Shown here in pieces: positions 48,648-62,269 of a DNA stretch of 64,000 bases (its first letter is position 1; each line of letters starts with the position of its first letter). The notes under the pieces are model-generated. The model saw nothing but the letters and a program-made list of their open reading frames with translations, was not told the origin of the DNA and made no database searches. Position numbers and translations under genes: made by a program. The stretch is from a bacterium (GTDB lineage Bacteria; Zhuqueibacterota; Zhuqueibacteria; Residuimicrobiales; Krinioviventaceae). The stretch lies in contig CAXXFV010000027.1 in assembly GCA_963674595.2 (NCBI GenBank), positions 362,887-426,886 on the forward strand, read 5' to 3'.

Positions 48648-49925
48648 ATGATTAGTAAAACACTCAAAAAGCAAATCGTCGAAAAAATTTTACAAAGTTC
48701 AGAATTCGCAAATTCAAAAACGAATAAAGATCTGTTAACGTATTTGATTAAAAATCATCTGGACGGTGAAATTCCAAATGAGACAGAAATTGCAATTGAA
48801 ATTTTAAATAGAGATAAAAGCTTTAATTCGAGTGAAGATCCGATAGTGCGTGTTCACATGCACAAGCTACGGAAGAAACTTGAAAATTATTATCAGACTG
48901 AAGGAAAAAATGAAAAAATTCATTTAGAAATACCTAAAGGAAGGTATGCTTTAAAATTTTCTACAGTCTGTCAGGATCCGGTTTCGGAGACTAAAAAAAA
49001 GCCTTACTTTTATATTGCCATGATTGTTGTTTTATGCATTATATGCGCGGCTTTGGGATACCAGACATGGTCTCTGAATGGAAAAATGAAACAGCATTCT
49101 ATAATTAGTAAAAAAGATAAAATTTGGAAAGAATTCCTGAACGGTTCTCACCAAATTCTTTTTGTTCTCGGCAACCATTTGTTTTTTTCCGAATATTCAA
49201 AAGACTTAAAAAAATGGAGATATGTACGGGATACTGCTATAAACAGTAAAGAAGAGTTGGAAAACTTTATCAAAACATATCCCAAATTTTATGTTGAAGA
49301 AACCAATGAAGCATACTTTCCGGATAGCGGTATCTTTGGTATGTCACCGTTACTTTACACACTGTATCCTGTTCGTAATAAAATAATCTTTCGCCGTGCA
49401 ATGGACGTTACACCGGCTTTTCTTCGCGAGTATGATATACTTTTTGTGGGCAGTATTAAAACACTTGGAATATTAAACCAAATTTTTTCCGCCTCAAACT
49501 TTAAATACCATGTTAGACCTAATGAATTATTTTTTACTCCTCCGGAAACCCCTCTGGCCCGCAGTGATTATTCAAAAAAGATTTTTTATACAAATCCGGA
49601 AACACTTAAAACCGACACGCTTGAAACAACATTTAACAACTATACCGGTTACAATCGTGATCTTGCTGTTGTATTAAAAGTTCCTGGTCCGATGAAAAAC
49701 ACAATCTTTATTATCTCTTCCTTCTTTTCATCCGGAGCACCGGAAGTTGCTAAATATCTGACAGATAAAAACACTCTTGAACAAATAGAACAGAGATTTA
49801 TCGAAAAATATACTTATGTTCCAGACTATTTTGAAATTCTATTCGAAGTTAGAGGAATTGAAAAAACGGGGCTTTCAACCAAGATCATCTACTTTAACGA
49901 ACTTGTGAATGCCAACATCTGGTAA
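48648..49925 (+). CDS. Membrane-anchored one-component regulator (N-terminal winged-helix-like domain, single TM, periplasmic domain)
   Basis: ILQSSEF..S...LL.YL...ETEIAIEIL.R...F...EDPIVRVHMHKLRKKLENYY...IPKGRY N-domain; TM FYIAMIVVLCIICAALGY. Confidence 0.75.
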   Translation: MISKTLKKQIVEKILQSSEFANSKTNKDLLTYLIKNHLDGEIPNETEIAIEILNRDKSFNSSEDPIVRVHMHKLRKKLENYYQTEGKNEKIHLEIPKGRYALKFSTVCQDPVSETKKKPYFYIAMIVVLCIICAALGYQTWSLNGKMKQHSIISKKDKIWKEFLNGSHQILFVLGNHLFFSEYSKDLKKWRYVRDTAINSKEELENFIKTYPKFYVEETNEAYFPDSGIFGMSPLLYTLYPVRNKIIFRRAMDVTPAFLREYDILFVGSIKTLGILNQIFSASNFKYHVRPNELFFTPPETPLARSDYSKKIFYTNPETLKTDTLETTFNNYTGYNRDLAVVLKVPGPMKNTIFIISSFFSSGAPEVAKYLTDKNTLEQIEQRFIEKYTYVPDYFEILFEVRGIEKTGLSTKIIYFNELVNANIW

Positions 49926-50029: not shown

Positions 50030-50992
50030 ATGAAAAAAGTAGTTTATCTATTTTTACTTTTCACACCTATTTTCGCCCAGTCACAACAATCCGACTTTCT
50101 CCACTTAAACAAAATTATAGCCAGACTGGAAGCAAATCAAATTGCTTTGGGAACCTGGTGCAGCGCCCTCCATCCTTCAAATGCTGTCGGTATGATAGAC
50201 TGTAATGGCTACCCCACTTTTGAAGAATCTCAAAACAAAGCGATGCTTGATTTTATACTCATCGATATGGAACATCAACCATTTGATATCAGCATGTTGA
50301 GAAATTATTTGTTGGCATTAAATTCAAAGCGTGAGGTTGCCGCCAAAGGCAATTTGCAGCCTAATATTGCAACTCTTGTTAGGATTCCTGCAGACGGCAA
50401 CCAACCAGTTCATGCAATGATAAAACAAGTTTTGGATATAGGTGTTCATGGAGTTGTTGTTCCACATGTACAAAATGCTCAGGAAGCTAAAAAAGTTATC
50501 AGTGCTTGCCGTTATGTTCAAACAAAAAGTTCAAAATATTCTTATCCGCAGGGAACAAGAGGAGCATCTCCCTGGCTGGCCTCTTATCTGTGGGGACTTT
50601 CATTACCGGATTATGTTGCCAGGGCAGATGTTTGGCCTTTGAATCCTGATGGAGATATTATGGCAATTTTGATGATAGAAGATATTGCCGGTGTAGAAAA
50701 TATTAAAGAGATATTAAAGGTTCCCGGAATAGGAGCGATTATTTTCGGGCCCTATGATTTTAGTTTTTATGCAGGTTGCCCCGGAGAAACAACCAACAAG
50801 ACTGTGGTACAAAGTTGGCAAATTATTAAAAAAGCTTGCGACGAAGCAAACGTTCCGCTCATTGGCTTTGCAAATGAAAACAATATAGATGAAAAATTAA
50901 AAGAAAATTATAAAATGATATTGGCGGGTCACGATGTTCGGAATAACGGTACGTTCCCGCAAGTCCTAAAAGCAGTTCAAAAAACATATTAA
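50030..50992 (+). CDS. HpcH/HpaI aldolase family protein with apparent signal peptide
   Basis: IDMEH, LVRIP, VLDIG..GVVVPHV, GTRG, LMIED and IFGPYD motifs; AAGGAG RBS. Confidence 0.85.
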   Translation: MKKVVYLFLLFTPIFAQSQQSDFLHLNKIIARLEANQIALGTWCSALHPSNAVGMIDCNGYPTFEESQNKAMLDFILIDMEHQPFDISMLRNYLLALNSKREVAAKGNLQPNIATLVRIPADGNQPVHAMIKQVLDIGVHGVVVPHVQNAQEAKKVISACRYVQTKSSKYSYPQGTRGASPWLASYLWGLSLPDYVARADVWPLNPDGDIMAILMIEDIAGVENIKEILKVPGIGAIIFGPYDFSFYAGCPGETTNKTVVQSWQIIKKACDEANVPLIGFANENNIDEKLKENYKMILAGHDVRNNGTFPQVLKAVQKTY

Positions 50993-51031
50993 ATACATAA
51001 TAATTTTCTCAATTATACATACAATTCCTGA

Positions 51032-51060
51032 TTGAAATTATATATAAAGTGTGTTATATT
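51032..51060 (+). promoter_or_regulatory. sigma70-like promoter, repeat unit 1
   Basis: TTGAAA (51032-37) - 17 nt - TATATT (51055-60), with extended TGn. Confidence 0.65.
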
Positions 51061-51066
51061 TAATCA

Positions 51067-51135
51067 GATTTAAACGAGCATCACCCCCGGCGACGGCGAC
51101 CCCCCTAAGTCGTTGCTGAGATGCTCGTTTTTTTT
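51067..51135 (+). ncRNA. Putative small RNA, copy 1 (C-rich double-loop hairpin with U-tail)
   Basis: Outer stem AAACGAGCATC/GATGCTCGTTT, ACCCC/A internal loop, inner 10-bp stem with G-U pairs, apical loop GACCCCCCTAA, T8 tail. Confidence 0.7.
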
Positions 51136-51187
51136 ATGTCTTAAAGATTCAGAAATTTCCTGACGTATAAATACAAGGTTCTCCCTA

Positions 51188-51221
51188 TTGTTTTGATTGA
51201 TATAAAGTTTTACCTTATACT
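51188..51221 (+). promoter_or_regulatory. sigma70-like promoter, repeat unit 2
   Basis: TTGATT (51193-98) - 17 nt - TATACT (51216-21); alternative TTGTTT-17-TACCTT at the position homologous to unit 3. Confidence 0.6.
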
Positions 51222-51230
51222 AGTTAATTT

Positions 51231-51297
51231 GATTTAACGAGCATCACCCCCGGTGACGGTGACCCCCCTAAGCCGTTGCTGAGATGCTCGTTTTTTT
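51231..51297 (+). ncRNA. Putative small RNA, copy 2
   Basis: Same fold; the three inner-stem substitutions versus copy 1 all retain pairing (C-G to U-G twice, G-U to G-C); T7 tail. Confidence 0.7.
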
Positions 51298-51377
51298 ATG
51301 TTAATATGTCTATAAAAATAAAAATTTATATTTTTTAATTAAGAAAATTCCTTACGTAAAATTACACATTTTCCCTA

Positions 51378-51406
51378 TTGTTTTATTTAATAAAGAGTTG
51401 TATATT
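51378..51406 (+). promoter_or_regulatory. sigma70-like promoter, repeat unit 3
   Basis: TTGTTT (51378-83) - 17 nt - TATATT (51401-06). Confidence 0.6.
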
Positions 51407-51420
51407 TAATTAGTTAATTT

Positions 51421-51490
51421 GATTTGTCGAGCATCACCCCCGGTGACGGTGACCCCCCTAAGCCGTTGCTGAGATGCTCGACTTTTTTTT
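51421..51490 (+). ncRNA. Putative small RNA, copy 3
   Basis: Stem base changed compensatorily to GTCGAGCATC/GATGCTCGAC; T8 tail. Confidence 0.7.
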
Positions 51491-51622
51491 GCCCTTCTTA
51501 TATTTAACTTCTTTTTTTATTCTTTAGAATTTCGTACTTTTCAAAACAGGTCATACGGAAATGGAGACTCATTTTCTAAAATTAAGTATAGTCTCAAAAC
51601 TTAATTAAAAAAGGATATTCAC

Positions 51623-51811
51623 GTGTCCACAATTATCCCTAAAGGTGAAAAAACAAGACGTGCCGTAAAATGGATTTCGGAACAAAGTAAAAACTCTGAC
51701 AAAGATACGAAAACACTTGTAGCCTCGGCAATTTCGATGTTTGATCTGAATCCATTCGAATCGGAAACGCTTTACCATTTTTACAAAGATACTACAAATT
51801 CCAGCGAATAA
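51623..51811 (+). CDS. Small hypothetical protein (62 aa, GTG start)
   Basis: AAAGGA RBS; stop codon 1 nt before the next ATG; helical-looking sequence PKGEKTRRAVKWISE...FDLNPFE. Confidence 0.7.
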   Translation: MSTIIPKGEKTRRAVKWISEQSKNSDKDTKTLVASAISMFDLNPFESETLYHFYKDTTNSSE

Positions 51812-51812
51812 T

Positions 51813-53360
51813 ATGTTACTGATTTATCCACCTGTTGCCAAACCTGCTGAAGCTCCGGCGGGACTTGCACAATTATCCGGTGTTTTCAAGAGCACAAGCC
51901 ATAAACTTATCGATGCCAACATTGAAGGTCTCTGCTACCTGCTGAACAAACAATATCCACCGGAAAACGCACGCCACAAAATGGCACTTCACAATTTGCA
52001 TAAAAATCTGGAATCAATTCAAAATATTAAAACATACTTACCTATTCATCATTATAACCGAATCGTTAAAGATTTAAGTCGAATTTTACAGTATCATGGA
52101 TTAAAATATAATACAAGACTGGGATTATCTTCTTTTAAACATACACATCTGACCCCGGCTAAAAGCACCGACCTGCTTTATTCAGCAGAACATCCTGAAG
52201 AAAATGTTTTTTATCCTTATTTTCGGGAAAAGATCATCCTTGAAATTGAAAAGCAGCAGCCGGAAACGGTTTGCATTTCCATCATTTATCTTGACCAAGC
52301 TCTAACCGCCTTTGCGTTAATCGGAACAATAAAAAAAACGATGCCCTGGATCAAAATAATTATTGGCGGTGGTCTTGTCACTTCATGGATGAGCCAGCCA
52401 ACATGGAACAACCCATTTCACGGTTTGATCGATCATATCGTTTCCGGGCCGGGAGAACAATTTTTACGGGACTATTGTCATATATCAGAAAGCCCGACCC
52501 ATGTTACACCGGACTATTCACAGTTAAAAAATATAAATTACTTTTCACCGGGGTTTATTCTCCCCTATTCAACATCTACCGGCTGTTACTGGAAAAAGTG
52601 CACATTTTGTCCGGAAACAACAGAGCAAAATCCCTATAAACCAAAAGACAACAAAAAGATAATTCAGGACCTGATAAAATTTAAAGAACTAAAGCCGGTG
52701 CTGCTGCACTTTTTAGACAATGCCCTCAGTCCCAATTTTCTGGAATTCCTGATTAATGCAGACATAAAAATTCCCTGGTACGGATATGTAAGGTTTACGG
52801 AAAAATTACTTGAAAGGGATTTTTGTTTCAAACTTGCACAGTCCGGTTGTGTTATGCTGCAACTTGGACTGGAATCCGGCAGCCAGACTGTTCTGGACCG
52901 GTTACAAAAGGGAATAAACCTGGAACAGGTAACAATAATCCTGAAAAATTTAAAAAACGCAGGTATTGGTACATACGTGTATTTTTTATTTGGCACACCG
53001 TATGAAAGTTACGATGAGGCGCAGAAAACATTGCACTTTATTCAAAATCATTTTGAATATATAGATTTTATGAATCCTGCGCTGTTTAATTTACCAAAAT
53101 TCAGTAAAGATGTTGAATTTTTAAAAACACGGTCTTTTTATGATGGTGACTTGTCACTATACCTGGACTTTAAAAATCCATCAGGGTGGCACCGCAAAGA
53201 TACCAGACACTTTTTGGACAGAGAATTTAAGCGGGACAAATATGTTGCGGAAATTTTAAGGCGAACACCTGCAACATTTACATCCGACCATGCCCCGTTT
53301 TTTATAATGAACAATTTTAACAAAGAAAAACAAAGGACACATTTTGTACAATATGAATGA
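51813..53360 (+). CDS. B12-binding-domain-type radical SAM protein
   Basis: MLLIYPP N-terminus, IIIGGG, GCYWKKCTFC (CxxxCxxC), LGLESGSQ.VL and FLFGTPYE motifs. Confidence 0.88.
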   Translation: MLLIYPPVAKPAEAPAGLAQLSGVFKSTSHKLIDANIEGLCYLLNKQYPPENARHKMALHNLHKNLESIQNIKTYLPIHHYNRIVKDLSRILQYHGLKYNTRLGLSSFKHTHLTPAKSTDLLYSAEHPEENVFYPYFREKIILEIEKQQPETVCISIIYLDQALTAFALIGTIKKTMPWIKIIIGGGLVTSWMSQPTWNNPFHGLIDHIVSGPGEQFLRDYCHISESPTHVTPDYSQLKNINYFSPGFILPYSTSTGCYWKKCTFCPETTEQNPYKPKDNKKIIQDLIKFKELKPVLLHFLDNALSPNFLEFLINADIKIPWYGYVRFTEKLLERDFCFKLAQSGCVMLQLGLESGSQTVLDRLQKGINLEQVTIILKNLKNAGIGTYVYFLFGTPYESYDEAQKTLHFIQNHFEYIDFMNPALFNLPKFSKDVEFLKTRSFYDGDLSLYLDFKNPSGWHRKDTRHFLDREFKRDKYVAEILRRTPATFTSDHAPFFIMNNFNKEKQRTHFVQYE

Positions 53361-54603
53361 TATTGAACTTTTATCTCCTGCTGGTTCTTTTGAAAGTTTA
53401 AATGCAGCGATAAAAGCAGGGGCAAATGCCGTTTATTTTGGGGTTGAACAACTGAATATGCGGGCACGGGCCGCCAAACCTTTCACCATTGCAGATTTGC
53501 AACTCATTTCTGAAACATGTAAAAAAGCACATGTTAAAAGTTATATTGCTTTAAACACAATAGTGTATGACCATGAAATTCCGTTATTGAATGAAATATG
53601 TGTGGAAGCAAAAAAGGCAGATATTTCTGCTGTGATTGCCACGGATATGGCCGCCATTGAATGTGCTAAAAGGAACAACCTGAATATTCATATTTCTACG
53701 CAGGCAAATATTTCAAATTTGGAAGCAGTTAAATTTTATGCCCAATTTTCAGATGTTGTTGTATTAGCGCGCGAACTCTCTATAGACCAGATTGCCTTTA
53801 TCTGCTCTGAAATTAAAAAACAAAATATATGTGGTCCATCGGGATCACTGGTTAAAGTGGAAATTTTCATTCACGGCGCCTTGTGTGTTTCCATTTCAGG
53901 AAAATGTTATATGAGCCTGGCGCTTACAAACCACTCTGCTAATCGCGGAGAATGTTTGCAATCATGCAGGCGCAGTTATCGCATTATTGATGAAACGACA
54001 AACGATGAGTTGACCATTGACAATAAATTTGTCATGTCGCCTAAAGATTTGTGTACAATCGGAATATTAGATAAAATTATCCAGGCAGGTGTTTCCGTTC
54101 TTAAAATTGAAGGACGCGGCCGGCCGGTTGAATATGTTTATCGGGTGACAAACGCTTACCGGCAAGCGATTAATGCGATTTATGATGGCAGCTATTCAAA
54201 TGAACATATAGAAAAATGGACAAATGAACTTGAAAGCGTTTTCAACCGAGGATTCTGGCAAAACGGCTATTATCTTGGACATAAGCTTGGTGAATGGAGC
54301 GCTTCTTATGGATCACGGGCCAAAAAACAAAAATTTTATTTGGGTTATGTTAAAAACTATTTTTCTAAAACACAAATAGCCCAATTTATACTTGAAAGCG
54401 GTGAAGTCAATATAGGTGATACAATCGTTGTAACAGGACGAACGACCGGCTATGCAGAAACGGTTGTATCAAGCATATATCTGGACGAACAATCCGTTCA
54501 AAAAGCAGTAAAAGGGCAAGACATAACCATACCCTTTCCTGACAAAATCAGAAAACAAGATAAACTTTATTTGTTAAAAAATAGAGAAATCTGGCAATCT
54601 TAG
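53353..54603 (+). CDS. Peptidase U32 family Fe-S protein (TrhP/RlhA-like hydroxylation family)
   Basis: ELLSPAG, GANAVYFG, HISTQ, LAREL, HGALC..SGKC...NRGECLQSCR and LKIEGR motifs. ATG at 53353 preferred as start. Confidence 0.9.
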   Translation: MNDIELLSPAGSFESLNAAIKAGANAVYFGVEQLNMRARAAKPFTIADLQLISETCKKAHVKSYIALNTIVYDHEIPLLNEICVEAKKADISAVIATDMAAIECAKRNNLNIHISTQANISNLEAVKFYAQFSDVVVLARELSIDQIAFICSEIKKQNICGPSGSLVKVEIFIHGALCVSISGKCYMSLALTNHSANRGECLQSCRRSYRIIDETTNDELTIDNKFVMSPKDLCTIGILDKIIQAGVSVLKIEGRGRPVEYVYRVTNAYRQAINAIYDGSYSNEHIEKWTNELESVFNRGFWQNGYYLGHKLGEWSASYGSRAKKQKFYLGYVKNYFSKTQIAQFILESGEVNIGDTIVVTGRTTGYAETVVSSIYLDEQSVQKAVKGQDITIPFPDKIRKQDKLYLLKNREIWQS

Positions 54604-57007: not shown

Positions 57008-57041
57008 AAAAAAGCCTGGTTATTAAAACCAGGCTTTTTTT
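57008..57041. terminator. Bidirectional intrinsic terminator
   Basis: AAAAAAGCCTGGTT-atta-AAACCAGGCTTTTTTT between convergent genes. Confidence 0.9.
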
Positions 57042-58207: not shown

Positions 58208-58953
58208 TTAAATAATATTTAAACTTTTCAAGGCTTGATTTGCAGCCATCTGTTCTGCTACTTTTTTTGACGGACCGGTTCCGGTTCCAAAAATATCTCC
58301 ATTAATCATAACAGAAATTGTAAACGTTTTTTTATGGTCCGGTCCTGTTTCATTTTGCAAAACATAAGCAGGCCCCACTAAATTATGACTTTGACAATGT
58401 TCCTGTAAAAGACTTTTATTATTACGAAAAGGTCCATTTTCAACAATGTCACCGAGTTTGGTGGTTATATTTTGCAAAATGAAATTTTTTGCAGCTTCCA
58501 GTCCGCCATCCAAATAAATGGCGCCAATAATTGCTTCCATCGCATCGGAAAGAATTGACTTGCGGCGTCTTCCCCCGATCTTTCCTCTGATTTGTTTAAA
58601 AGTAAAAATTCTCCAATTCCAAATTCTTTTGCAACTTCGGAAAGAATGTTACGATTAACAAGTAAGGATTTGTAATTTGTTAATACACCCTCTTCTTCCT
58701 CAGTATAGGAAGCATATAAAAAATCTGTTACAACAAGACCTAATACGGCGTCACCAAGCAATTCCAAACGCTCATTTGACTCTATTCTTTTTTCTCCGGT
58801 CGTTGTTAAATAAGACCGGTGCTTTAGAGCTTGTATCAGGTATTTGTTGTCATGAAATGAATGTTTTAATCTTTTTTCAAGCGTAGTTGTATTCAGGTCT
58901 TTTTCTTCCTTTGAAAAGAATGAAGAAAAAAGACGATGAAGCTTGTTCCACAT
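58208..58953 (-). CDS. rnc: Ribonuclease III (1-bp deletion in the run at 58572-58576, probable sequencing error)
   Basis: ALKHRS, SNERLELLGDAVLGL; adding one G restores SGGRRRKSILSDAMEAIIGAIYLDGG plus the dsRBD (248 aa). Confidence 0.92.
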
Positions 58954-58990
58954 AGTTGAACCTATCTGATTATACTGCTCTGACGAATCA

Positions 58991-60236
58991 TTACCCGGTA
59001 TAATTTTTGAAGGCCAATGAGACATTATGACCGCCAAAACCAAAAGAGTTGGAAATGGCGTAATTTATTTCCTTGTCGATTGGTTTGTTAGGAACATAGT
59101 TCAGGTCACAATCCGGATCAGGTGTTTGGTAATTAATAGTTGGGTGAATCATCTTATTTTTGATCATAAGAAGAGTAGCAATAGCTTCGGCGGCCCCTGA
59201 AGCGCCAAGCATATGCCCGGTCATTGATTTAGTAGAACTTATAGCTAAATTATTAGCATGCTCACCAAAAGAATTTTTGATGGCCAATGTTTCCGTTTTA
59301 TCATTTAAAGGTGTTGATGTGCCATGGGCATTGATATAATCGACTTTATCCGGTGTAATCTGCGCTTCCTTTATGGCGATATTCATGGCGCGTGTTGCAC
59401 CATCGCCGGTAGGAATTGGGGCCGTAATATGATAGGCATCACCGGTAAATCCGGCACCAACAATTTCACCATATATCCTGGCATTTCTGTTTTTGGCATG
59501 TTCCAGTTCTTCCAGAAACAAAATTCCTCCGCCTTCGCCCATGACAAATCCATCGCGATTTAAATCAAAAGGACGACTTGCTGTTGCAGGATCATCATTT
59601 CGGGTTGATAAAGATTTTGAATTATTGAATCCAGCCAAACCCATTTGATTTATTGGTGCTTCGCTTCCGCCGGTAACCATTGCAACCGCTTTTCCATATC
59701 GTATATAATTAAAAGCTTCACCAATAGCATGGGAAGAAGATGCACATGCAGACGTAGTTGCATAATTTACACCTTTAAAACCATAAGCCATAGAAATATA
59801 ACCCGGTGATATATCGGCAATTAACATCGGAATAAAAAACGGACTAATACGTTTCGGTCCTCGATCAAAAAGTACTTTGGTTTCTCTTTCATACGTTGTC
59901 ATGCCGCCAATACCGGAAGCAACAATGACCCCAAAATCCTCTAGGTTTTCCTGTGACAGATCGATATTCGCATCGTCTACAGCCATTTTTGCAGCGGCCA
60001 GAGAAAAATGAGTAAACCTATCCATTCTTCGAGCTTCTTTTTTATCCAAATAATTTGTCGGATCAAAATCTGTAATTTCTCCGGCAAATTTTGTAAGATG
60101 TTCGGCTGTATCAAAAAGTGTAATTAATCCGATACCGTTTTTGCCTTTAATTAAATTTTGCCAATATTCGTCAAGCGTTTTACCAAGTGGGCATACAATG
60201 CCCATTACCGGTTACAACGACTCTTTTCAAGTCCAT
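58991..60236 (-). CDS. fabF: 3-oxoacyl-ACP synthase II (1-bp insertion at ~60206, probable sequencing error)
   Basis: MDLKRVVVTG from ATG 60236 is one base out of frame with MGIVCPLG; TTSACASS, INAHGTST and SNSFGFGGHN motifs. Confidence 0.95.
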
Positions 60237-61337: not shown

Positions 61338-62269
61338 TTATCCCACTAGATTTCTAATTGATTCTGCATTATTTATGCTAAAAGTAGAAACGGTTTTATC
61401 TATACGTTTTACCAATCGGGCAAGCACGTTACCATTTCCCACTTCAATAAACTCTTTAATACCATTTTCAACCATCGTTTGAACTGTTTTTAACCACAGC
61501 ACAGGATGTGTTAATTGTTTGGATAGATATTCTTTTAATTTGTCCGGGTCTTGTGAAAAATTTCCGGTAACATTGCTGTAAACCGGAACAAGAGGTTTTT
61601 GAAACTGAACAGAATCGAGCATCCCGGAAAACTCGACAACCGCAGATTCCATTAAAGGCGAATGGAAAGCGCCACTAACATTTAGTTCAACAACATTTTT
61701 AGCTTTATTTTCTTTTGCTAATTCCTGGGCCTTTTCAACACCTTTTTCGGTACCGGAAATAACAAGTTGAATTTGTGAGTTATAATTGGCCGGACCTACA
61801 AAATTTCCATCATTTGTAACGGACTGGCAAATATCTTTAACTATTTTGCTGTCCAGACCTATAATAGCCGCCATTTTGCCGGGATTTTTTTGTCCGGCTT
61901 GCTGCATTAATTCACCACGTAATTTTACGAGTTTTAGTCCTTGCTCAAAAGAGAAACATCCGGCAGCAGCAAGAGCGGAATATTCACCTAAACTGTGTCC
62001 GGCAACAGCGCTTGCATCGGAGCCGTTTTCAGATAAAAGTTGATATAATATATATAACTATGAACAAATAAAGCAGGTTGTGTAAACTGTGTTTGTGACA
62101 ACTTATCTTCAGGGCCATCAAAACATAATTCCGCAAGGTCAAACTGCATTATTTCATTGGCTTTTTTATAATATTGTTTTGCCAAATCAAATTGTTCATA
62201 AAGATCTTTCCCCATGCCTAAACTTTGTGATCCTTGTCCGGGGAAAATATATGCTTTATTACTCAACAT
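61338..62269 (-). CDS. fabD: Malonyl-CoA:ACP transacylase (frameshift in a TA repeat at ~62048-62056, probable sequencing error)
   Basis: FPGQGSQ and TQPAL in one frame; AGHSLGEYSAL and VSGAFHSPLM in another. Removing one TA gives HSYILYQLL and a 309-aa protein. Confidence 0.93.

Follow-up and report, generated by a model that had tools for sequence, protein, structure and literature searches.

The window analysed here, a 64-kb stretch of bacterial DNA taken at its full length, contains a spacer of about 630–633 nt between an HpcH/HpaI-type aldolase gene (50030–50992, + strand) and an open reading frame (ORF) of 62 amino acids (aa; 51623–51811, + strand), and within this spacer lies a tandem array of three short direct repeats. 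Judged by their sequence, the repeats look like three sibling genes of an undescribed small regulatory RNA (sRNA) family whose members measure 65–80 nt. A repeat search of the window joins the units into one family with a 119-nt register and start-to-start distances of 163 and 190 bp, and each unit carries on the + strand a near-identical 57-nt core (51072–51130, 51236–51292 and 51426–51482). A 34-letter core pattern matches three times in the 64 kb, always within the array, compared with no match in 100 shuffles. A preliminary description of this DNA had placed three cores of about 57 nt here, spaced 164 and 190 bp apart; the cores and the second distance stand, and the first is corrected to 163, with one extra A in the outer stem of unit 1. 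Between units, identity amounts to 55–59 of 62 positions in the core, from 43/69 to 61/79 in the part upstream of it and from 7/21 to 21/43 in the part downstream. We infer the 5′ ends of the predicted RNAs, in the case of sRNA 1 from the position of the −10 sequence alone, and all three predictions draw on sequence, fold and a covariance model:

51067–51135, + strand: predicted sRNA 1, with an AU-rich 5′ end (GAUUU...) and a hairpin at 51072–51130 (ACCCC loop 51083–51087, apical loop 51098–51108, T run 51128–51135)
51228–51297, + strand: predicted sRNA 2, with a hairpin at 51236–51292 (ACCCC loop 51246–51250, apical loop 51261–51271, T run 51291–51297)
51413–51490, + strand: predicted sRNA 3, with a hairpin at 51426–51482 (ACCCC loop 51436–51440, apical loop 51451–51461, T run 51483–51490)

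On the + strand all three units adopt the same two-tier hairpin, both as the minimum free energy (MFE) and as the centroid structure. The outer stem, 10 bp long (11 bp in unit 1), leads through an internal loop, in which the 5-nt ACCCC faces a single A, into an inner stem of 10 bp that is closed by the 11-nt apical loop GACCCCCCUAA, containing CCCCCC. The fold energies of units 1–3 are −27.4, −26.3 and −29.0 kcal/mol (z −5.96, −6.99 and −6.41), and none of 200 shuffles folds as stably; with z scores of −6 to −7, a chance hairpin is rejected. The − strand forms other, weaker structures (z −1.17, −3.66 and −4.64), and because it folds differently and worse, the three to five G-U pairs per copy fix the strand. 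Folding the whole spacer (633 nt) as a single RNA leaves the three hairpins in place, in the MFE as well as in the centroid structure, and brings out no competing pairing. Every stem difference between the units preserves pairing: the stem base changes from AA..UU to GU..AC in unit 3, and unit 1 differs from units 2 and 3 by C-G to U-G at two pairs and by G-U to G-C at one. The preliminary description had proposed this shared + strand fold with its ACCCC/A loop and terminal T7–8, the pairing-preserving differences between copies, the invariance of the C-rich loops and the strand assignment from G-U pairs, and all of it is borne out.

The stems of units 1–3 run into 8, 7 and 8 T, respectively, and all three copies, together with the homologous element described below, have the form of an intrinsic terminator, in which a GC-rich stem is directly followed by a T run. 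A terminator scan does not list them, since it allows loops of 3–8 nt; a script scan finds 28 hairpins in the window that abut at least six T, and the three of the array are the most stable among these. A clear ordinary terminator, at 57012–57036, is an intergenic, plain 10-bp stem with a 5-nt loop.

Coding sequence is excluded as an explanation of the repeats. The claim that the units contain no ORF holds in the sense that none is common to the three and none spans the core of unit 2; three short + strand ORFs of 20–27 aa exist, in differing frames or positions. Likewise, no + strand ORF of at least 20 aa covers the homologous element.

Conservation of the element in a second genome

A scan of 185,579 species genomes with an exact pattern of 19 specified bases (both loops and three stem bases), which left the inner stem free in sequence and length, returned four loci, L001–L004. 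The window's three copies fit the pattern yet were not returned, and the source genome therefore lies outside the scanned collection. Chance accounts for two of the loci, L001 (labelled Chloroflexota) and L003 (labelled Bacteroidetes), which have no visible flanking stems and no match to the covariance model R1. The remaining two, L002 in a metagenome-assembled genome (MAG) labelled Calditrichota and L004 in a MAG labelled Actinomycetota, are true homologues and represent the same locus: their upstream sequences are 89–99% identical per 200-nt block (94–99% in the 1.8 kb closest to it), no difference occurs in the element or in the first 137 nt counted from the match start, and an apparent divergence downstream is a 16-nt indel. 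The L004 contig (JAACEJ010000499.1, 3.7 kb), whose similarity to L002 spans an M16 peptidase gene, is labelled Actinomycetota and was probably mis-binned. In L002 the element is present as a single copy with an outer stem of 13 bp and a run of 8 T, and lies between the M16 peptidase gene (+ strand, ending at 1874) and a convergent M1 peptidase/HEAT gene (− strand, ending at 2154). The element is thus independent of its neighbouring genes.

The model R1 was built from an alignment (A2) of the four distinct sequences. Run with filters off on the window and all scan loci, it scores the array copies at 104, 101.4 and 103 bits and finds five copies in total (97–104 bits), namely the three of the array, one in L002 and one in L004; its other matches reach at most 27 bits and lie on opposite strands or at an AT-rich terminator. 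The stem changes seen in this homologue from another lineage are compensatory. Standard pairs occupy 79 of the 80 stem cells of A2, one cell being unpaired; both sides have changed with pairing kept in 5 of 20 pairs, and 3 further pairs have changed on one side via G-U. In 500 shuffles neither the paired fraction nor the covariation score is ever attained, and the double-change count is attained in 3, while sliding the partners by 1–3 columns as a control lowers pairing to 19.5–59.7%. As the four distinct sequences amount in effect to one independent comparison, we regard the covariation as suggestive rather than conclusive.

The loops and stems of the element have diverged to different extents. 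Between the window units and L002, 11–14 of 40 stem positions and 8–9 of the 14 columns 5′ of the stem are different, against one difference in 18 loop columns, a C inserted beside the bulged A; all 16 nt of both C-rich loops and the bulged A itself are unchanged (Fisher p 0.02–0.08 for stems versus loops and 0.0006–0.004 for flank versus loops). Despite the stem changes, the homologue retains the loop-stem geometry of a 5-nt loop, 10 bp and an 11-nt loop. This is the pattern expected for a structured RNA with sequence-specific loops, and we consider it very likely that the array specifies a functional structured RNA on the + strand.

Since the core is an imperfect palindrome in several copies, it could also be a repeated DNA element of the repetitive extragenic palindrome (REP), miniature inverted-repeat transposable element (MITE) or integron attC type, copied by a recombinase or transposase, with the hairpin being a feature of the DNA. 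The ends of attC sites read RYYYAAC ... GTTRRRY, with cassette ORFs between the sites and an integrase nearby, and the outer stems of units 1 and 2, which start with AAC and end with GTT, are reminiscent of them. However, the 3′ end here reads GTTTTTT, unit 3 and L002 lack the AAC..GTT ends, no ORF is common to the spacers, and no integrase or transposase match to Pfam was found in the 37 window ORFs scanned. Dispersed copies, which the preliminary description had named as the mark of such a repeat, are not what the window holds: the three array copies stand alone in its 64 kb. We reject a repeat dispersed through the window or through either of the two MAGs, the copies being tandem, co-oriented and few, with one locus in each MAG. 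A blastn search in distant mode against 72,556 plasmid and 50,697 phage records returned nothing, and the G-U pairs and the T run make sense only in a + strand RNA. We therefore see very little room for a mobile or repeated DNA element at this locus.

Promoters, neighbouring genes and possible targets

The following further features surround or precede the units:

51032–51060, + strand: promoter-like site of unit 1, TTGAAA-17 nt-TATATT with TG before the −10 (consensus scan 10/12)
51193–51221, + strand: promoter-like site of unit 2, TTGATT-17 nt-TATACT (consensus scan 9/12)
51378–51406, + strand: possible promoter of unit 3, TTGTTT-17 nt-TATATT, seen by eye and missed by the consensus scan
50030–50992, + strand: HpcH/HpaI-type aldolase gene (Pfam PF03328, E 1.7e-21), the upstream neighbour, outside the element
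51623–53360, + strand: start of the downstream operon, comprising the 62-aa ORF (51623–51811) and a B12-binding radical SAM gene (51813–53360); context, no link to the array found

Several observations weigh against a family of independently expressed, trans-acting sRNAs, the first of them concerning promoters. Each unit had been described as having its own promoter with a 17-nt spacing between −35 and −10; promoters are called for units 1 and 2 and not for unit 3, and the 11 promoter-like sites of the region do not exceed the 8.0 (standard deviation 2.9) found in shuffles. The wider claim of self-contained sRNA genes accordingly survives in part: the units are structured, conserved and without an Rfam family, whereas a promoter for each of them is not borne out (two of three called). 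In L002 the sole + strand promoter call (1847–1875) ends about 115 nt upstream of the element, and a TTGACA there is followed 17 nt later by a poor −10, TAACTT (3/6, by eye). No promoter or operator motif shared by the window units and L002 was found, and their upstream regions do not align. We nevertheless regard independent transcription of the units as plausible. A conserved stretch, TTCCTGACGTAT / TTCCTTACGTAA, occurs at 51156–51175 and 51346–51365 (+ strand), which is about 70 nt upstream of the second and third hairpins, and is partly retained in unit 1; its second occurrence contains the perfect palindrome TTACGTAA, and palindromes of this kind upstream of units 2 and 3 could be a binding site for a regulator or a trace of recent duplication.

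Also to be set against the proposed sRNA genes is the apparent rarity of the family, as the four loci in 185,579 species genomes include two true ones that are a single locus, and the fact that a co-oriented gene ends 80–118 nt upstream of the element both in the window and in L002. Because of this arrangement the hairpins may primarily terminate that gene, or the RNAs may be cut from its transcript. In the first case they would be intrinsic terminators or structures of the 3′ untranslated region, tripled by tandem duplication and devoid of any role in trans, which might protect the 3′ end of the mRNA or insulate the downstream operon. The unit 1 hairpin is indeed the first terminator-like structure 3′ of the aldolase gene, no other strong hairpin appearing before 51072 in the spacer fold; each unit consists of a GC-rich stem followed by 7–8 T; the promoter calls are incomplete and not above chance; and the L002 element lies between convergent genes, where a terminator is expected. 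On the other hand, terminators of genes as unrelated as the aldolase gene and the M16 peptidase gene of L002 are not normally homologous, and termination calls for no specific loop sequence, yet the loops and the bulged A stayed unchanged while the stems changed at 11–14 of 40 positions and the flanks became unalignable. Moreover, the clear ordinary terminator of the window is short and simple, and three strong terminators 163–190 bp apart would be redundant. We consider it unlikely that termination of the upstream gene accounts for the array, and if the hairpins were merely terminators, the invariance of their loops would still need explaining.

The array also lies directly upstream of an operon on the same strand, made up of the 62-aa ORF, the B12 radical SAM gene and a gene for a U32 peptidase, and three terminators in series could act as cis-acting attenuators in its long 5′ leader, with read-through controlled by some factor. 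Against this, the downstream gene in L002/L004 is the convergent M1 peptidase gene, which leaves nothing to attenuate, the spacer fold shows all hairpins persisting without antiterminator pairing, and no riboswitch or leader family of Rfam 15 is matched. Given the convergent L002 neighbour and a spacer fold that offers no alternatives, we reject an attenuator or 5′ leader of the radical SAM operon, an explanation that we rate as highly improbable.

As regards the genes of this operon (51623–54603, + strand), the radical SAM enzyme, which is followed by the U32 peptidase-family protein, has its best NCBIfam similarities, far below cut-off, to a PhpK-type P-methyltransferase and a C-methyltransferase of ribosomally synthesized and post-translationally modified peptides (RiPPs). 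The 62-aa ORF has no Pfam or NCBIfam match and one relative (59 aa, 66% identity) in a search of 5.8 billion proteins, and may encode a small protein that serves the radical SAM enzyme as substrate or partner. A protein of 425 aa encoded two genes upstream of the array (48648–49925, + strand) has a weak N-terminal match to Trans_reg_C, an OmpR/ToxR-type winged-helix DNA-binding domain (E 1.8e-4, below cut-off), and is a candidate local regulator.

Nor did a search of the window for G-rich targets lend support to a trans-acting function. No convincing target was found in the 64 kb, either among G runs or by apical-loop duplex energies against 37 start regions. Outside the array there are 21 runs of at least five G, all inside or antisense to coding sequence and none at the 37 start regions, and the C tracts pair poorly with the host's usual GGAGG-type ribosome-binding sites because of the C-A mismatch. 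The two best duplex energies, which are overestimated because the loop string used included stem bases, fall at the starts of the two pieces of a split RNase III gene, and the next best at GGAGG sites with a C-A mismatch. Since a pure C tract does not tolerate the A of the GGAGG-type sites found before many of the window's genes, we would expect a few G-run targets, as for RepG of Helicobacter pylori discussed below, rather than general mimicry of ribosome-binding sites.

The idea of a C-preferring RNA-binding partner in bacteria offers another way to account for the loops: the C tracts would be recognized by a KH-type or other C-preferring protein, and three genes would supply a titrating dose. 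Neither the sequence of the two loops nor their position in the helix varies, with a geometry kept in the homologue, several copies suit titration, and no mRNA target was found in the window. Nevertheless, no candidate partner protein was identified among the genes of the window or L002, two sites per RNA are few for a sponge, and seed regions predict invariant loops equally well. A protein-binding role of this kind appears to us improbable.

Host affiliation and other genes of the window

In its gene content, with type IX secretion sorting domains, PorV-like proteins, TonB receptors that carry CarboxypepD_reg domains and several glycoside hydrolases, the window fits the Fibrobacteres–Chlorobi–Bacteroidetes (FCB) group, which includes Calditrichota. 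On the − strand, a long co-oriented block (550–46888) carries genes for glycoside hydrolases (GH36, GH92, GH38 and a trehalase-like enzyme) and two Na+/solute symporters, together with two TonB-dependent receptors bearing CarboxypepD_reg domains, four proteins furnished with type IX secretion sorting tails, a pair of PorV-like proteins and two peptidyl-prolyl isomerase (PPIase) proteins. The block looks like a polysaccharide-utilization region of the FCB group, part of which has apparently been duplicated, since it contains two copies of a module in which a large unannotated protein is combined with a PorV-like protein and a PPIase.

Two genes of the window are split or appear to be so. That for RNase III (58208–59043, − strand) consists of overlapping ORFs at 58465–59043, with the catalytic domain, and 58208–58540, with the end of that domain and the double-stranded RNA-binding motif; the frame changes, as read by eye, at a G5 run (58572–58576), and the split resembles a homopolymer indel, which could be due to faulty assembly or mark a genuine pseudogene. 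Runs of one base in the window may consequently be a letter too long or too short; the independent MAG loci confirm the C6 of the apical loop. A fabD-like acyltransferase gene (61338–62269, − strand), which belongs to a plsX-fabH-fabD-fabG-acpP-fabF-rnc cluster, is seemingly split into 61988–62269 (93 aa) and 61338–61907 (189 aa), the latter matching only positions 126–277 of a Pfam profile of 319 positions.

The proposed RNA family and comparable systems

We propose that each RNA would consist of an AU-rich 5′ end and one long two-tier intrinsic-terminator hairpin, which would present two single-stranded C tracts at fixed positions, ACCCC in the internal loop and CCCCCC in the apical loop. 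The RNAs would be released at the T run, having been transcribed from their own promoters or by read-through of the upstream gene, and the C tracts would act in trans, as seeds for pairing with mRNA stretches rich in G, either G runs or G-rich ribosome-binding regions, thereby changing the translation or stability of the message; the three copies could raise the dose or permit separate control. By analogy with the systems discussed below, we advance this full trans-pairing mechanism tentatively, as a possibility that we stop short of calling probable. Perhaps more far-reaching, though a good deal more doubtful, is the idea that the terminator hairpin constitutes the entire functional module and that its two rigidly spaced C tracts clamp either a bipartite G-rich element, made up of two G runs and perhaps prone to form a G-quadruplex, or an RNA-binding protein specific for C.

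The interest of the trans-pairing sRNAs proposed here lies partly in their host, as this part of the bacterial tree has hardly been explored for regulation by small RNAs: Table 1 of a 2022 survey gives one annotated sRNA for Calditrichaeota and 16 for the FCB group, compared with 345 for Proteobacteria (PMC9029176). If the proposal is true, the solution of setting a C-rich loop against a G-rich site would have arisen anew in an unrelated phylum, where it would be built into the terminator itself. If the terminator hairpin indeed proved to be the whole module, the element would be the first characterized regulatory RNA of Calditrichota and could provide an entry point to riboregulation in that phylum. 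Being compact, equipped with two invariant C tracts and specified by three gene copies, the proposed RNA should, moreover, be readily testable.

The element belongs to none of the families tested and very probably represents a new small-RNA family. At the gathering threshold, Rfam 15 gives no match in the 64-kb window, as the preliminary description would lead one to expect. With E values up to 10, the region 50900–51700 yields five matches, the best being tsr25 of Staphylococcus aureus (17.9 bits, where the gathering threshold is 63; E 0.25), and this alignment covers only the hairpin with the C-rich loop, a resemblance that is non-significant. No prior description of the element was found in the open-access papers searched for small RNAs of Caldithrix/Calditrichota or for poly-C-loop sRNAs.

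Type III toxin–antitoxin loci, which also contain RNA repeats, are built from short tandem repeats and one terminator followed by the toxin gene. Here the units are 163–190 bp long and each has a terminator, the 62-aa ORF that follows has no family match (no PADLOC search was made), and L002 has a single copy and no co-oriented downstream gene.

The lhrC1–4 genes of Listeria monocytogenes lie in tandem. The sRNAs LhrC1–5 resemble the array in comprising several near-identical copies with C-rich motifs in their loops, that of the terminator included; LhrC is described as acting additively from five copies and as binding a G-rich site before the lapB start codon through three redundant UCCC motifs, located in two loops (loop A and the terminator loop) and in a single-stranded stretch (PMC4132741). 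LhrC is, however, an RNA of about 110 nt with two stem-loops, a single-stranded stretch and the UCCC motif, from an unrelated phylum, whereas the array RNAs are predicted to form one two-tier hairpin with the motifs ACCCC and CCCCCC. The UCCC motif, as defined in that report (PMC4132741), is absent from the unpaired regions of every window copy, and Rfam gives no match to LhrC, provided that LhrC is present in release 15. RsaE/RoxS and other sRNAs of Firmicutes, which the same source describes as directing unpaired C-rich motifs against G-rich ribosome-binding regions (PMC4132741), share with the array the display of such motifs; there is no Rfam match to RsaE.

Tandem arrangement and C-rich motifs in hairpin loops are shared, in addition, with the homologous short RNAs CcsR1–4 and the cuckoo RNAs of Alphaproteobacteria (Rfam ar14). 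CcsR1–4, a row of four homologous RNAs whose loops bear C-rich motifs, are described as derived from the transcript of the upstream gene (PMC8034643). Cuckoo RNAs form two separate hairpins, unlike the single two-tier hairpin of the array units, and the anti-Shine–Dalgarno motif that defines them in that account, CCUCCUCCC (PMC8034643), is absent from the array, whose loops are ACCCC and GACCCCCCUAA. Adjacent to the array there is also no DUF1127 gene, a trait of CIN1 loci, the neighbours being the aldolase gene and the 62-aa ORF in the window and the M16 and M1 peptidase genes in L002.

Closest to the mechanism that we propose is RepG, as a pure C tract needs a G run. The C/U-rich loop of the RepG terminator is described as pairing with a G repeat within an mRNA's 5′ untranslated region (PMC8295292), and in the array RNAs, too, the proposed C-rich seed would lie within the loop of the terminator hairpin itself. 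RepG differs in being a single-copy RNA with a C/U-rich loop, a different fold, a known G-run target and a host from an unrelated phylum. Overall, the mode of action suggested here resembles that of sibling sRNAs with C-rich loops, while the architecture, in which the terminator loop would be the seed, comes nearest to that of RepG.

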